Of a DNA stretch of 28,822 bases, positions 13,938 through 21,419 are shown piece by piece; position 1 is the first letter of the stretch, and each line of letters begins with the position of its first letter. A program made the translations under genes and the position numbers. Origin of the DNA: Oscillospiraceae bacterium (GTDB lineage Bacteria > Bacillota > Clostridia > Oscillospirales > Acutalibacteraceae); contig CACXFE010000212.1 of the NCBI GenBank assembly GCA_902766855.1, forward strand, positions 1-28,822, in the 5' to 3' direction. Under the pieces are notes generated by a model. The model was given only the letters and a program-made list of their open reading frames with translations. It was not told the origin of the DNA and ran no database searches.

Positions 13938-15041
13938 TTAAACATTGAAACGGAAAAGAACAATGTCGCCGTCCTTCATCACATAGTCTTTTCCTTCGCT
14001 TCTCACAAGCCCTTTTTCTTTGGCTGTGACCATACTGCCGCCGCAGACATCCATAAATTCGTCAAACCCGATGACTTCCGCGCGAATGAAGCCCCGTTCG
14101 AAATCCGAGTGTATTTTGCCGGCCGCCTGGGGGGCTTTGGTGCCTTCCCGGATCGTCCATGCACGCACTTCGGGTTTTCCCGCGGTCAGATAGGAGATCA
14201 GACCTAATAAGTGATAGCATTTTTGGATCATGCGGTCAAGCCCCGAGCGCTCCAATCCCAAATCTTCCAAAAACAGGGCCTTTTCTTCATCGCTTAAAGA
14301 AGAAATTTCTTCTTCCAGTGCCGCGCAAATCGGTAAGATTTCGGCTTTTTCTTTTTCAGCTAAAGCCTTTACGGCAAGGTAATTTCGGTTGGAATCTATG
14401 CCGTTTCTGAAATCATCTTCGCTCATATTGCAGGCATAGATCACCGGCTTTGCGGAAAGCAGGGCGGTAGTATCCAAAATTTCCTGCTCACTTTCGTCCA
14501 GCAGTTCGATGGAGCGGGCGGGCAGACCGCTTTCCAAATGCGCGATCAGTCGTTTTAAAAAGTCCGCTTCCCCTTGTAATTTTTTATCGCCTTTCAATGC
14601 CTTCAAAGTGCGGTCCAAGCGGCGCTGCGCCATTTCTATATCGGAAAAAATCAATTCCAGATTGATGGTTTCTATATCCCGCAGGGGATCGACCGAGCCT
14701 TCCACATGAATAATGTCATCGCTTTCAAAACAACGCACAACATGCACAATGGCGTCCACTTCCCGAATATGAGAAAGGAACTTATTGCCAAGCCCTTCTC
14801 CTTTGGAAGCGCCCTTCACAAGCCCGGCAATATCGACAAATTCGATCACGGCGGGAGTGAATTTGTCCGGCTTGTAAATCGCGGCCAGTTTTTCCAGCCG
14901 TTCATCCGGCACACTGACCATCCCGACATTCGGTTCAATGGTGCAGAAGGGGTAATTGGCGGATTGCGCGCCGGCGTTGGTGATTGCGTTGAACAAGGTC
15001 GATTTCCCGACATTGGGAAGACCTACCATTCCTAGTTTCAT
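13938..15041 (-). CDS. ychF: Obg-family ATPase YchF
   Basis: GLPNVGKS, NYPFCTIEPN, DIAGLV, IHSDFERGFIRAEV and EGKDYVMKDGD. Confidence 0.97.
   Translation of the reverse strand: MKLGMVGLPNVGKSTLFNAITNAGAQSANYPFCTIEPNVGMVSVPDERLEKLAAIYKPDKFTPAVIEFVDIAGLVKGASKGEGLGNKFLSHIREVDAIVHVVRCFESDDIIHVEGSVDPLRDIETINLELIFSDIEMAQRRLDRTLKALKGDKKLQGEADFLKRLIAHLESGLPARSIELLDESEQEILDTTALLSAKPVIYACNMSEDDFRNGIDSNRNYLAVKALAEKEKAEILPICAALEEEISSLSDEEKALFLEDLGLERSGLDRMIQKCYHLLGLISYLTAGKPEVRAWTIREGTKAPQAAGKIHSDFERGFIRAEVIGFDEFMDVCGGSMVTAKEKGLVRSEGKDYVMKDGDIVLFRFNV
15004..15019. other. Candidate att core (crossover site) inside the ychF 5' end
   Basis: TTCCC-GACATT-GGGAA is a 5-bp inverted repeat around a 6-bp spacer. 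It lies where ychF codons switch from A/T-ending (CTA GGA ATG GTA GGT CTT) to mostly G/C-ending. Confidence 0.5.
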
Positions 15042-15128: not shown

Positions 15129-16310
15129 TTAAGCAGTCGAAAGGCTTTCAAACTGTCGAACTGCATTTAACAAGGAATCTTCCGTTACATGAACGTAACG
15201 ATCCATAGTTGTTTTTATGCTACCGTGACCAAGTAATTTTTGTAATACTTTTGGTTGCATTCCGCTTTCAATAGCTCTTGTAGCGTATGTATGTCTCAAA
15301 GCATGCATACAAAAGCGTTTGATTTTTGCTTCATCGCATAACTTGTAAAGATGGGTGTCATAAGAACTGTTCTTTGCAGGTTCTCCCGTTCTCCAATTGA
15401 TGAAAACAAGGTCTCGCATAACTAATGTTGATTTTTGGCCTGTATGTCTATCCATATAATCCAACGTTTGAGACAAAGTTTCTGATTCCTTTCGGAATTT
15501 TCTGTTTTGATATAATTCCAAAAGAATATCATATGCTTTGTTTGTTAATGGAATAGTGCGGTAGCTATGTTGAGTTTTTGGTGGACCTGCACGCCAATAG
15601 CCTTGTTTGTGTCTGTATTCCAAGGTTTTATTTACTGTGAGAGTTCGTTTTTCAAAATCAATTGTATCCCAGGTTAATCCAATTAGTTCTCCAGTTCGAA
15701 GTCCAGTTTCAAGAAGCAAAGCGTATTGTTTATAATTATGTGAACGTTTTGCAGCTTCTAAAAATTTTTTCTGTTCTTCTATGGTAAGGAACTTTATATC
15801 GTTTGGAGCACGAACTGGTTTGGTGTAACGTACTCCGTCCATAGGATGCTTTATTATTAAATCATTCATCAAAGCAGACTTAAACATTGTGCCCATACAG
15901 ATAAAACATTGTCGTATTGTAGAACCAGCATATCCGTCATTCATCTTATTTAAAACCATTTTGCAATGCAAGGGTTTAACATCGGATAATAACATACGTC
16001 CTACAACAGGTTTTACATTAATGGTATATCTTTCCCTGTAGTTTCGTAGAGTGTTAGGAGCAAGGTCTCCAACTATATTATCAATCCAATAGTTAAACCA
16101 ATCATCAACAGTCATATCAGAAGGTGCAAATACATTGTCGTGCTTATCTACATATTTTGCTTCTTCTAACCAATTGCGGGCTTCTGGTAAAGTGGGGAAC
16201 AGTTTTTCTTGTCGTTTACCATACTTATTTACAAATCTTGCGGAATAGAATCCATCCTTTCTTTGGCAGATACCTTTGCCACATTCTTTGCCTTTTAGGT
16301 TTTTACCCAT
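15129..16310 (-). CDS. int: Tyrosine recombinase/integrase with Tn916-type N-terminal arm-binding domain
   Basis: N-term [15 protein letters not shown]. Catalytic GLRTGE (R), PPKT (K), HALRH (HxxR), LGH, TTMDRY (Y). RBS GGAAAGGAG. Confidence 0.95.
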
Positions 16311-16359
16311 TATATTGAACTCCTTTCCACACTAAGAAAAGAGCCAATGCAACTATTAT

Positions 16360-16388
16360 AGTATAACTCATTGACTCAATATTTTCAA
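16360..16388 (-). promoter_or_regulatory. Sigma-A-like promoter of int
   Basis: TTGAAA-N17-TATACT on the - strand. A 9-bp imperfect inverted repeat (16341-16349/16369-16377) brackets the -10. Confidence 0.65.
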
Positions 16389-16417
16389 TAAAAAATCTAA
16401 AATTATATAGTATAATA

Positions 16418-16624
16418 TTAAATAATCAAATTGTTGCTTATAAAATCCTCAAACTCCTTACGTTTGACTAACTTTTTTGTTCCTACAAACAGAACAAACG
16501 GACAATTTGGGGCTCGTAATAAAGCATCAATTTTGTTTATACCGATATTACTGTACTCGGCGGCTTCTTTAATTGTTAATGTCAGCTTTTCGTTTATGGG
16601 TATTTGTTTTGAATTTTCAGGCAT
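16418..16624 (-). CDS. xis: Excisionase (Tn916 Xis-like winged HTH)
   Basis: 68 aa, LTIKEAAEYSNIGINKI...KKLVKRKEFE, immediately upstream of int. RBS AAGGAGA. Confidence 0.88.
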   Translation of the reverse strand: MPENSKQIPINEKLTLTIKEAAEYSNIGINKIDALLRAPNCPFVLFVGTKKLVKRKEFEDFISNNLII

Positions 16625-16724
16625 TTTTTATCTCCTTTATAATTTTTTGAATAGGAAGAAACAATATAAAGACAAATTTATGATAAGAAAAAGGTTTTTA
16701 TAGAATAATATATCCAAATACAGA

Positions 16725-16856
16725 CCATTTCCTGCATTTTGCGTATTTTCAGGTAGTGCTGTGCACGGTTTGATTTGCAGGCATGCTCAATCTTCATCGC
16801 ATACTATCTGCAAAACCTGTATAACTTCTGTAAAAGGATTCAATTTTCAAGGTTCA
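16725..16856 (-). ncRNA. Putative structured leader RNA upstream of xis, with a boxA-like 5' element
   Basis: TGAACCTTGAAAATTGAAT (16856-16838), then stem GGUUUUGCAG/CUGCAAAUCAAACC with an inner UAUGC/GCAUG helix, then a GUGC-ACA-GCAC hairpin. Confidence 0.45.
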
Positions 16857-16937
16857 AAATAACGGTATTTGCGTCCGTTGTAAAATTAAATACGGATAAA
16901 ATGATATTTCTTCTTCACAATAATGAAAATTTTTCTT

Positions 16938-16953
16938 AAACCATATATTGTTT
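16938..16953. promoter_or_regulatory. Putative NrdR box 1
   Basis: AAACCATATATTGTTT against consensus acaCwAtATaTwGtgt: all capital positions match; mismatches at positions 2, 5 and 15. Confidence 0.5.
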
Positions 16954-16970
16954 TAAAATCAAAATAACGC

Positions 16971-16999
16971 TTGACAACCACAACATATTGTGGTAATAT
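16971..16999 (+). promoter_or_regulatory. Near-consensus sigma-A promoter of the rightward operon
   Basis: TTGACA (16971-16976), N17, TAATAT (16994-16999), with an extended -10 TGn. Confidence 0.85.
16978..16993. promoter_or_regulatory. Putative NrdR box 2 (operator in the promoter spacer)
   Basis: CCACAACATATTGTGG lies within the 7-bp palindrome ACCACAA-N4-TTGTGGT and matches acaCwAtATaTwGtgt at 13/16 positions, including all capitals. Confidence 0.65.
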
Positions 17000-17004
17000 A
17001 GCTT

Positions 17005-17352
17005 TGTAATTGATTTTTGTGCATGCCCTTGAGGGGCAATCGTAATACTTTTTGTATTACATCGCACACACACGTTGAGTTTGTAATTGAGTGCTGACAG
17101 AATAATTCTGCCCTTTTAAAGGTAAGAATAAATGTCAGCACTTTTTATATAGATATTAACGCCTTCGGGCAGAAAGGAGAAAGAAGACCAAGATTATTGT
17201 TATCTTTAAGGTAACGGACACGGGGAGGTAAAGCAAGTTAATGCTTTGTTTCTAAAACAATCATAAAAACAGAAGAAATACTGCTGATAATGTTTCAGCT
17301 TTTTGAGGAATCGTATGTGTTTTAAGAGAAATACAACGATTCCTCTTTTTTT
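17005..17352 (+). ncRNA. Putative ~345-nt structured leader/sRNA (5' end inferred from the promoter)
   Basis: No credible CDS. Hairpins at 17024-17038 and 17042-17060, a 10-bp perfect stem 17090-17099/17133-17142, a GCC-UUCG-GGC tetraloop at 17161-17170, and a terminal terminator. Confidence 0.6.
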
Positions 17353-17358
17353 GTTTTT
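17305..17358 (+). terminator. Intrinsic terminator upstream of the first operon gene
   Basis: GAGGAATCGT/ACGATTCCTC perfect 10-bp stem plus a 7-bp inner stem, followed by TTTTTTTGTTTTT. Confidence 0.85.
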
Positions 17359-17390
17359 ATGGCCATTTTTTAAATGAAAGGAAGAAATTT

Positions 17391-18182
17391 ATGAGAAGAT
17401 TTCAAAAACTGAAAAGCTCGGCAGTTACACTATTGATTGCAGTTTTAGCAATCACTTGTTTTACGAGAGGTGTTTTACAATTGTCTCTTTATATTGCGGC
17501 ATTTGTGGCATGGGGTATATATGCCTTCATATCATTTGTTGTGCCGATAATAAAGAGACACAACTATCGCCGTGAGGTAAAACGGATTGTGAACGAAAAG
17601 CCATGTAAAGATGCAAATGATGATAATTATGAAAGATTAAGTTACTTGTTGCTTTGTCATGTCAATCACAGAATTACCGGTTATATTCAAAGTACATATC
17701 CCGATGCAACATGGGCTTGGCGAACGGATAAACCTGCATATATTATGGCAAACGGTGGTACTGGCAGAATAGAGCTTTTCGGTGTTAAGGAATATAATTT
17801 TGCTGACATATCTTTTGATAATGATGCAAATATTGATTGTTCCTTGCTTAAAATTGTAAGTCTTAAACAGGCGGCGCAAACCGAATGTAAGGATGCATCT
17901 GCCGATGTTACAAAATCGGAAATTGACCCGCAAGTATGGTTTGAAAAAAGCGGTCGTGTAATCCTTAAAAACCTTATTGCAGAATTAGGCTCAAGAGGAC
18001 ACAATACACTTACTATACGAGATGATGGAAGCTGTGTTGTGAAACAGGGTGAAAAGGAAATTGAGGTATCTCATCTTGAGGCGTTTCCTGAAAGAGTGTA
18101 TCATCCCAAGCTTATTAAGGTTTTTGCAGGAGCAGGTATTGCCGCAAAAACTGTGGATGCGGGATTGGCTGTTAATTGGTAG
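17391..18182 (+). CDS. Hypothetical protein with two N-terminal transmembrane segments, 263 aa
   Basis: RBS GAAAGGA, hydrophobic residues ~10-45, stop overlapping the next RBS. Confidence 0.75.
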   Translation: MRRFQKLKSSAVTLLIAVLAITCFTRGVLQLSLYIAAFVAWGIYAFISFVVPIIKRHNYRREVKRIVNEKPCKDANDDNYERLSYLLLCHVNHRITGYIQSTYPDATWAWRTDKPAYIMANGGTGRIELFGVKEYNFADISFDNDANIDCSLLKIVSLKQAAQTECKDASADVTKSEIDPQVWFEKSGRVILKNLIAELGSRGHNTLTIRDDGSCVVKQGEKEIEVSHLEAFPERVYHPKLIKVFAGAGIAAKTVDAGLAVNW

Positions 18183-20129: not shown

Positions 20130-20170
20130 AAAAGAGATGCTGTAGCAATACGGCATCTCTTTTGCTATTT
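20130..20170 (+). terminator. Internal terminator-like hairpin before the sigma factor gene
   Basis: 15-bp stem 20130-20144/20149-20163 with a GCAA tetraloop, ending TTTT then GCTATTT. Confidence 0.7.
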
Positions 20171-21227: not shown

Positions 21228-21263
21228 AAAGGGCACAGTGAGAACAATCTTGCTGTGCTTTTT
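21228..21263 (+). terminator. Internal terminator-like hairpin
   Basis: 16-bp stem (several G-U pairs) with an ACAA loop, ending in TTTTT directly before the next RBS. Confidence 0.6.
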
Positions 21264-21278
21264 AGGTAGGTGATTAAA

Positions 21279-21419
21279 ATGAAAGATTTTATAAAAAATA
21301 TAGTTCTTAAATTCCGTTTATGGTTTAAGCGGGATAAAAGATGTCCGCATTGTTGTGTTACCTGTAGATTTTTCAATGATTGTATAGAAGAAATGAGGAA
21401 CGCAAATGAATTTAGCTGA
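21279..21419 (+). CDS. Cys-rich small protein, 46 aa (absent from the ORF track)
   Basis: RBS AGGTGA 5 nt upstream. MKDFIKNIVLKFRLWFKRDKRCPHCCVTCRFFNDCIEEMRNANEFS*. Overlaps the next start by 14 nt. Confidence 0.65.
   Translation: MKDFIKNIVLKFRLWFKRDKRCPHCCVTCRFFNDCIEEMRNANEFS

Follow-up and report, generated by a model that had tools for sequence, protein, structure and literature searches.

How does transcription reach the genes of a mobile-element operon when its strong promoter is separated from the first of them by several hundred bases of structured leader ending in a terminator? The question is raised by one contig of a 1.48-Mb Clostridia genome, analysed here over its full 28,822 nt (hereafter the window), for which an earlier note, made from the letters of the sequence, had described a leader of about 345 nt (17005-17390) and proposed that it is a cis-regulatory RNA gating a long operon. 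Our analysis supports that general idea, as a conserved and covarying RNA is indeed followed by terminators, and it redraws the unit: what is functional appears to be the first ~142 nt, which end in a terminator of their own, and not the 345-nt stretch as such. The reading that we tentatively prefer is that this unit may act in cis as an antitermination leader.

The locus and the anatomy of its leader

The last host gene in the window is ychF (13938-15041, minus strand), beyond which Pfam searches identified a tyrosine integrase (15129-16310, minus strand) and a Tn916-type excisionase, xis (16418-16624, minus strand). Divergent from this xis-int pair, a plus-strand operon of at least 11 kb begins with the ATG at 17391, which together with its Shine-Dalgarno sequence, AAAGGAAG, occupies 17377-17393 on the plus strand. 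The operon encodes a 263-aa protein of no Pfam family, a DUF932 protein, a 272-aa protein, a sigma-factor-like protein, several small ORFs, a 303-aa protein coupled to a 1022-aa N6-methylase/SNF2-helicase fusion, and an HTH protein, and it is of the establishment and anti-defence kind. A related element in the Vescimonas fastidiosa record pMM35_02 also adjoins ychF, also has xis-int at its end, and carries genes for a VirD4-like coupling protein, sortase-dependent pilins, an AcrIIA9-family protein, PcfJ and LigA; judged by this relative, the window element is an integrative conjugative element (ICE).

A promoter scan located a sigma-70-type promoter at 16971-16999 (plus strand), consisting of TTGACA, a 17-bp spacer and a TG-extended TAATAT, in agreement with the strong promoter that had been claimed ahead of the leader. 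The predicted transcription start is G17006, 7 nt past the -10 element, and the spacer contains a palindrome, CCACAACATATTGTGG, that is kept across the family described below. The same scan, applied to the interval from the second terminator to the first gene (17350-17391), returned no promoter-like site, which bears out the statement that no promoter fits between the terminator and the ATG.

The whole leader (17005-17395) folds at -119.2 kcal/mol, far below its shuffles (z -7.97; matched by 0 of 100), and the hairpins that had been described are all present, at 17024-17038, 17042-17060, 17089-17099/17133-17143 and 17161-17170 (GCC-UUCG-GGC). The claim of a structured leader thus holds overall, but the structure is uneven: the excess is confined to the conserved core with its terminator (17006-17147, z -5.07) and to the terminal stem (z -6.61), and the interval 17148-17297, which includes the UUCG hairpin and a mini-ORF, shows no structure beyond that of shuffles (z -0.73, 43 of 200). 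The conserved core lies at 17005-17146 on the plus strand. It opens with block A, TGTAATTGATTTTTGTGC (17005-17022), which begins at the predicted transcription start; the fold then places two variable hairpins (17024-17038 and 17042-17060) at 17024-17060, inside a predicted helix that we call P1, and these are followed by block B, CATCGCACACACACGTTGAGTTTGTA (17060-17085), delimited by near-invariant alignment columns and by the covariance-model alignment. Relative to the family consensus, CAUUGCACACGYUGUUAAGUUUGUA, block B of the window has a 4-nt CACA insertion.

The perfect 10-bp stem pointed out by the earlier note closes this core. It is there, with 9-11 perfect base pairs (17089-17099/17133-17143), but it is not an ordinary hairpin: it belongs to a long and, by prediction, strong bipartite intrinsic terminator, T1 (17089-17146, plus strand), made up of a hairpin at 17089-17141 and a U5 tract at 17142-17146, with a predicted energy of -20.4 kcal/mol. 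Since a U5 tract directly follows this hairpin, the leader contains two predicted terminators in tandem. The second, T2 (17305-17352, plus strand), is the long T7-tailed stem that had been noticed close to the first gene; its 18-bp stem (10 + 8, with one bulge) spans 17305-17345 and its U7 tract 17346-17352, it folds at -22.2 kcal/mol (z -6.61), and it ends 38 nt upstream of the ATG. In T1 and T2 alike a GC-rich stem-loop runs directly into a U-tract, the arrangement by which intrinsic terminators are predicted.

The stretch between the two terminators has a different history from either. Comparison with blastn showed that 17142-17180 is homologous to the block that, in relatives carrying ssb, joins T1 to the ribosome-binding site of that gene; within it (17147-17179) lie the GCC-UUCG-GGC hairpin (17161-17170) and the Shine-Dalgarno sequence AAAGGAG, which those relatives have ahead of ssb. 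At the other end, 17305-17357 is 83.6% identical to the post-ssb terminator of one relative, L119 (E 7.6e-11, blastn). The 125 nt between the ribosome-binding block and T2 match only the nearest relative, L044, and a tblastn search of 17181-17304 for a remnant of ssb coding sequence gave no significant match, so that homology to ssb carriers is found in the flanks only. By the homology of these flanks, the region from 17147 to 17304 (plus strand) is the relic of a lost gene, in which the post-T1 block is followed by filler: the middle of the leader is the decayed start of ssb and T2 the former ssb terminator. The 345-nt leader accordingly divides into the core with T1, the gene relic, and T2.

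Two further elements that had been singled out within the leader fared less well. The mini-ORF MLCF* (17241-17255) exists, but it is not conserved, and we rejected it as a functional element, given that L044 and another relative, L080, carry unrelated short ORFs at that place. By eye, the short ORF of L044 resembles a truncated ssb start. Likewise, the proposed pairing of ACACACACG (17066-17074) with the left arm of T2 (17312-17320) is real at 8 of 9 positions but lies at chance level, its energy of -8.1 kcal/mol being equalled by 25% of shuffles (mean -6.5 kcal/mol). This pairing was also dropped as an antiterminator candidate, as it is kept only in L044 and is absent from L065, L067, L073 and L080.

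A leader RNA family of gut Clostridia

The first ~60 nt past the promoter matched two related genomes, and their alignment showed compensatory hairpins. Exact-pattern scans with the first 18 transcribed bases gave at least 120 matches in species-representative genomes, and scans with a downstream conserved block gave at least 120 in metagenome contigs and 10 contigs in IMG/VR. The matches listed place the core in over 100 genome contigs and over 120 metagenome contigs, and the filtered set holds at least 212 instances with at least 151 distinct sequences. Carriers belong to the Lachnospiraceae, the Oscillospiraceae and other Clostridia that live in the guts of humans, mice, rabbits, chickens, ruminants and termites, with cultured strains in Pseudoflavonifractor, Enterocloster, Hungatella, Lacrimispora, Allofournierella, Angelakisella and Anaerocolumna.

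The order of parts is the same throughout the family: the same promoter, block A (UGUAAUUGAUUUUUGUGC) at +1, one to three hairpins of free sequence, block B, a linker of 3-12 nt, and T1, which takes the form of a long two-part hairpin with a run of 5-7 U. All copies stand directly behind this promoter with block A at +1. A consensus of 148 upstream regions has TTGAC in 142 of them, a conserved C-ATAT-TTGTG spacer and a TAnAcT -10 element, and five variable bases separate that element from block A. Because a seed made from block B only recovered the exact 18-nt block A in 97 of 118 copies (the remainder having 1-5 substitutions), the conservation of block A is not a mere artefact of the search. 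Among the 151 distinct members listed, the hairpins between the blocks number three in 125, two in 22 and one in 4, the distance from A to B varies from ~20 to 90 bp across the family without helical phasing, and T1 is present in 140 (93%). A covariance model, R1, trained on 54 members, gives 95.5 bits for 17005-17146 and finds no other match in the window. In most members the 5' flank and base of T1 repeat part of block A as UUUUUGUGC, for which the window has UUUGUAAUUGA..GUGC; this repeat is missing from a diverged subfamily, of which seven copies lie on two contigs of one genome (G208) and one copy in another (G113).

Searches against Rfam 15 with the whole window at gathering thresholds gave no match, in line with the earlier note, which had claimed no homology to known systems; a permissive search of 16300-18000 gave only chance-level matches (E at least 1.7), and six other members, the diverged subfamily included, had no match at E up to 1. 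A full-text literature search with the sequences of blocks A and B found no paper, and a keyword search for RNA motifs in Clostridia ICEs returned nothing relevant. On these sequence searches, the leader RNA is new as a family, and probably of a kind already known, namely leader RNAs that control termination in mobile elements.

We then considered the fold that the family has in common. In the RNAalifold consensus, helix P1 joins block A to block B through two short pairings, UGUGC(G) with (U)GCACA and UUGAU with GUUAA, thereby enclosing the variable hairpins. Covariation was evaluated on 40 members less than 90% alike, in which 96.8% of cells form standard pairs; changes on both sides of a pair affect 44 cells compared to 14.8 in shuffles, with none of 500 shuffles reaching 44, and in a control in which partners were slid by 1-3 columns pairing fell to 26-47%. 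The alignment of homologues that the earlier note had recommended thus places the compensatory changes in T1, where they affect 5 of the 8 stem pairs, and in the middle hairpin of three-hairpin members. P1 shows no both-side variation in the main family, and its single covarying position changes from G-C through G.U to A-U across three subfamilies; it is almost without covariation support because both of its strands are near-invariant. The many G.U pairs point to selection on the sense strand, and this selection, taken together with the promoter and the U-tracts, argues that the core acts as RNA.

This evidence bears directly on a reading at the level of DNA, in which block A (+1 to +18), possibly with block B, would be a binding or pause site for a Q-like regulator that loads onto polymerase, or a set of repressor operators, with T1 in the role of lambda tR' and the hairpins incidental. 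Such a reading would suit a block A that always sits at the transcription start and that is conserved unchanged instead of covarying, and a strong promoter with a terminator ~145 nt downstream does resemble the PR'-tR' arrangement of lambda. The establishment genes of plasmid p576, moreover, share a repeated operator cassette (PMC6294495). We nonetheless regard it as very improbable, given that the hairpins between A and B are kept by compensatory changes and G.U pairs, which implies selection on RNA, that the spacing of A and B ranges over ~20-90 bp without helical phasing, and that the searches for antiterminator proteins, Q-like or of another known type, were negative.

The same alignments speak to the suggestion that the leader is a classical attenuator or riboswitch platform. 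RNAalifold runs on alignments from which block A or the 3' arm of T1 had been removed gave only a 4-bp local hairpin and no competing fold, and pairing of block B with the 5' arm of T1 is no better than chance (-10.1 compared to -9.5 kcal/mol in shuffles; 140 members). As no conserved fold competes with T1, local refolding is unlikely to be the switch, and this argues against the classical form of the suggestion. A broader version would be a local, signal-dependent attenuator, in which the A:B core binds a protein of element or host, or a small ligand, and modulates T1 only; the ligand could be related to nucleotides, in view of the DNA-metabolism genes and the NrdR-like box of the promoter, and T2 and the later terminators would merely tune the relative expression of genes. 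About 40 invariant nucleotides in two blocks, joined by interchangeable hairpins and followed by a terminator, are indeed the layout of a riboswitch or protein-binding leader, and the repeat of block A at the base of T1 could be a second binding site that overlaps the terminator. Set against this, no alternative pairing between core and T1 is conserved, one to three hairpins inside P1 would be unusual for a ligand pocket at a junction, and the repeat is absent from the diverged subfamily.

Operons behind the core and their further terminators

The conjugative elements concerned usually carry two to four cores, co-oriented with the genes that they precede, and the cassette heads at least four types of operon. 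The first, to which the window belongs, has the order [ssb], 263-aa protein, DUF932 protein, further genes, sigma-like protein, further genes and methylase/helicase; the second begins with a YqaJ-type exonuclease and a RecD2 helicase; the third with a 401-aa protein of no known family; and the fourth with two proteins that belong to no known family, ahead of an NAD-dependent ligase. The presence of two to four copies per element ahead of different operons suggests a shared cis-regulatory cassette. Upstream of the core lies either xis-int, as in at least 20 of the 64 loci compared, or a Zn-finger/sigma-factor operon, and among the 64 loci there was no neighbouring regulator gene that is universally linked to the core.

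T1 is regularly not the last terminator that polymerase would meet. In relatives of the window's operon type (the post-T1 sequences compared were L009, L076 and L119), ssb stands immediately past T1 and is followed by a very strong terminator at ~+650 to +700, and in the other operon types a different conserved structured terminator lies at ~+240, so that a second terminator always follows T1. Farther into the window operon, a terminator-like hairpin with a weak U-tract (about 20133-20163, plus strand) stands immediately before the sigma-factor-like gene, where L050, L076 and L094 have strong terminators at the equivalent place, ~+3.6 kb. Another terminator-like hairpin (11 bp including wobbles) with a U5 tract lies inside the operon at about 21233-21263 (plus strand); it directly abuts the Shine-Dalgarno sequence and start of a 46-aa Cys-rich ORF, leaving no space for a promoter. 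Its counterpart in the Vescimonas element is a perfect terminator of 16-20 bp (L257:19600), and L050 and L076 have corresponding terminators at ~+4.5 kb.

The genes behind the core also allow a further possibility to be weighed, namely that promoter, core and T1 together form a gene for a standalone, trans-acting RNA of ~140 nt, directed at other copies, a protein or host targets, with downstream expression reflecting only leakage. With its strong promoter, its conserved and structured body and a terminator that looks efficient, the unit would have all the parts of an sRNA gene, and several copies per element would raise its dose. All 104 genome-contig copies examined, and the diverged copies as well, are nevertheless co-oriented with an operon and directly upstream of it; where ssb is present, its Shine-Dalgarno sequence lies in the conserved block ~30 nt past T1, a gap that leaves no space for a promoter, and in scans between T1 and the next gene no promoter passed; in the window there is likewise none past T1 or T2; and a search of the window and of 50 kb of the Vescimonas element gave no site with complementarity to either block A or block B. 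We therefore consider a standalone sRNA improbable.

For the local attenuator, the distribution of the cassette cuts both ways. One cassette at the head of functionally related operons would be regulon-like, as expected of a common signal; after relief at T1, on the other hand, the operon would still be blocked by the strong second terminator, behind which there is no promoter, and no RNA-binding regulator was recognised nearby. Weighing these points with those from the alignments, we judge the attenuator unlikely.

Proposed antitermination in cis and its relation to known systems

The order of a conserved RNA first and at least two strong terminators next, with no promoters behind them, is what antitermination in cis would lead one to expect. 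The explanation that we tentatively put first is therefore that the core is a cis-acting antitermination leader, probably a processive one. Transcription would begin at ~17006, and block A would pair with block B so that P1 closes around one to three interchangeable hairpins. T1, a long intrinsic terminator some 5-10 nt past block B, would by default halt the polymerase, giving an RNA of ~140 nt, or the polymerase would be halted at T2. The folded A:B core, acting either alone (as HK022 put, EAR and Tn916 canT do) or with a factor, would modify in cis the polymerase that has just transcribed it, and the modified polymerase would pass T1, T2 and the later terminators of the operon. Read-through would thereby switch on the early genes for DNA handling and anti-defence. 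That the terminators function, that the core relieves them and that this relief is processive are steps that we infer from sequence.

Cis-acting RNAs with processive antitermination have precedents in Gram-positive conjugative elements, in canT (PMC11658703) and conAn2 (PMC8191782). Several considerations nonetheless weigh against the antitermination leader. An invariance of ~40 nt suggests recognition by a protein or a ligand equally well; the core is always fixed at +1, unlike known RNA antiterminators; T1 follows within ~10 nt, and the stems of T1 and T2 are very long, when in the conAn system of pLS20 stems of at least 14 bp, a length that T1 and T2 reach, resist processive antitermination (PMC10325885). 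A terminator right behind a constitutively active core would moreover seem pointless unless a factor is needed, and no partner protein was recognised in the window. On account of this invariance, the position at +1, the closeness of T1, the stem lengths and the missing partner, we give the antitermination leader a probability of only about 0.4.

With regard to a possible factor, Pfam and profile searches of the window recognised no known antiterminator protein. Antitermination by a NusG paralogue of the RfaH/LoaP type was considered and rejected: PF02357 detected one NusG in each of three carrier genomes (G000, G208 and G061), either on a different contig from the core copies or at a long distance from them, and none in the Vescimonas record that holds the element, so that no element-encoded paralogue was present in these four.

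Among known systems, canT offers a close setting, since it too belongs to a Gram-positive ICE whose Xis (of Tn916 type) and tyrosine integrase fall into the same Pfam families as those of the window. Wirachman and Grossman (2024) describe canT as a cis-acting, orientation-specific RNA that carries transcription from one promoter past several intrinsic terminators and that requires no other Tn916 gene (PMC11658703). It measures 341-452 nt, lies between orf8 and xis, is co-oriented with xis, has no defined conserved fold and occurs once per element, whereas the core comprises ~85 nt plus its own terminator, begins at +1, is divergent from xis and occurs in two to four copies; the position of the core is therefore not that of canT. 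The conAn system shares with the core a leader-encoded RNA antiterminator at the head of long conjugative-element operons with many internal terminators (PMC8191782). It differs in that conAn2 (260-600 nt) lies 3' of conAn1 and depends on the ConAn1 protein for its action at a distance (PMC8191782, PMC10325885), whereas there is no ORF between the promoter at 16971-16999 and T1, either in the window or in 104 relatives. As no protein gene precedes the RNA, the locus is not a conAn system.

Other likenesses are more partial. Both put and EAR are small folded RNAs that work on polymerase in cis and need no dedicated protein, put being present in two copies, one behind each early promoter, and EAR being an Rfam family. 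The core, by contrast, matched no Rfam family, and neither put nor EAR is known to be immediately trailed by a terminator of its own or to be fixed at +1. Two kinds of cassette from the leading regions of plasmids, the single-stranded-DNA promoters Frpo/ssi and the Reg576 operators of p576, resemble ours in position and copy number, as repeated, co-oriented non-coding units ahead of ssb, anti-restriction and establishment genes (PMC11541004, PMC6294495); compared to Frpo/ssi, the cassette has an ordinary duplex -35/-10 promoter on one strand instead of a hairpin-formed one, and its conserved part lies past the start and ends in a U-tract terminator. In the attenuator prgQ/IRS1 of pCF10 and in the countertranscript systems of pT181 and pIP501, a strong promoter yields a short terminated RNA by default and extension turns on transfer genes, as might occur here, but these systems work through alternative folds and an antisense RNA whose promoter overlaps the leader, and our family shows no conserved antisense promoter or alternative fold. 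The Rfam model ctRNA_pT181 gave the window only a weak score, 24 bits against a gathering score of 56, over T2 only.

A wider proposal, which we consider less likely than not, is that the core represents an RNA antiterminator of a new class, or a sensor RNA of a new kind, at the extreme 5' end of the transcript and that, together with a putative NrdR-type operator in the promoter, it would form a two-layer switch, present in two to four copies per element, over the early establishment, recombination and anti-defence genes of a large family of conjugative elements in human and animal guts. In gut Clostridia, genes for resistance and fitness travel from species to species on such elements. The cassette of promoter, ~85-nt core and tandem terminators ranks among the most conserved non-coding sequences of the elements that carry it, and it heads the genes that a newly arrived element needs first, those for SSB, exonuclease, helicase, ligase and an orphan methylase-helicase; in one relative a cassette-headed operon includes an AcrIIA9-family anti-CRISPR. 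If the core is an antiterminator, it would add a compact member to the very short list of RNA-based antitermination systems and provide a means of turning such elements on or off; should it sense a ligand or bind a protein instead, it would be a new regulator of horizontal transfer. Either way, the core merits an Rfam entry and would be a useful marker for such elements in metagenomes.

Promoter spacer and diverged copies

The 17-bp spacer of the cassette promoter holds a palindrome-like sequence (window 16979-16994; family consensus aCaCaATATaTTGTG), which is conserved in promoters from 148 members of the family and is also kept by the diverged subfamily. A single genome, G208, has seven diverged cassette copies, on contig C9 (56-74 kb) and on contig C15 (32-53 kb) (loci L261-L270), all of them co-oriented and amounting to three or four copies per element. 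One of the seven heads an operon that includes the gene for an NAD-dependent DNA ligase; next to this operon, on the opposite strand, is a Y-family polymerase gene.

Apparent deletions and a second module around the first terminator

In two genomes, block A, the first 18 nt of the leader RNA, is joined directly to the intrinsic terminator T1, without the hairpins and block B (L057:2840-2931, minus strand; L079:4509-4600, plus strand). One copy of the direct repeat UUUUUGUGC lies in block A and the same sequence recurs at the foot of T1, and both short forms look like the product of a deletion between these repeats. A second conserved structured module was detected 3' of T1, at approximately +160 to +300 after block A, in seven relatives (L021, L022, L025, L041, L013, L071, and L074) whose operons are of the exonuclease/helicase and 401-aa protein types. 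Its long-range hairpin (GCGAGGAUGAC ... GUCAYCCUCGC) has a U-run, and a conserved GCCCAAAUGCCG segment comes next; the module may represent a separate RNA element.

Gene content on either side of the cassette

The gene ssb comes first in the window's operon type in most relatives; in the window it is absent (interval 17147-17304), and only its ribosome-binding block and terminator remain. Comparable losses were seen in the relatives L044, L080, L065, L067, and L073, and L044 retains at the ssb position a short ORF that, by eye, resembles a truncated ssb start. Farther into the window operon, a 46-aa Cys-rich ORF (CPHCC..C..C; window 21279-21419) with a good Shine-Dalgarno sequence begins directly 3' of the internal terminator and extends into the beginning of a 303-aa gene, which is coupled to the methylase-helicase gene. 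On the upstream side, we surveyed 64 loci of the family, each with 2.5 kb or more of sequence 5' of the cassette; at least 20 of these have the cassette adjoining a divergent xis-int pair at the element end, as does the window, and in others the cassette comes after an operon whose products are a Zn-finger protein, a member of the sigma-70 family, and two proteins without known family.

Cassettes on contigs classed as viral

The cassette or its promoter is present in ten IMG/VR contigs classed as viral (L127-L136) and in GenBank MT835653.1 ('Bacteriophage sp.'), and several of the operon proteins matched PHROG families. The elements that bear the cassette may have been misclassified as phages, or they may be related to phage-like elements.
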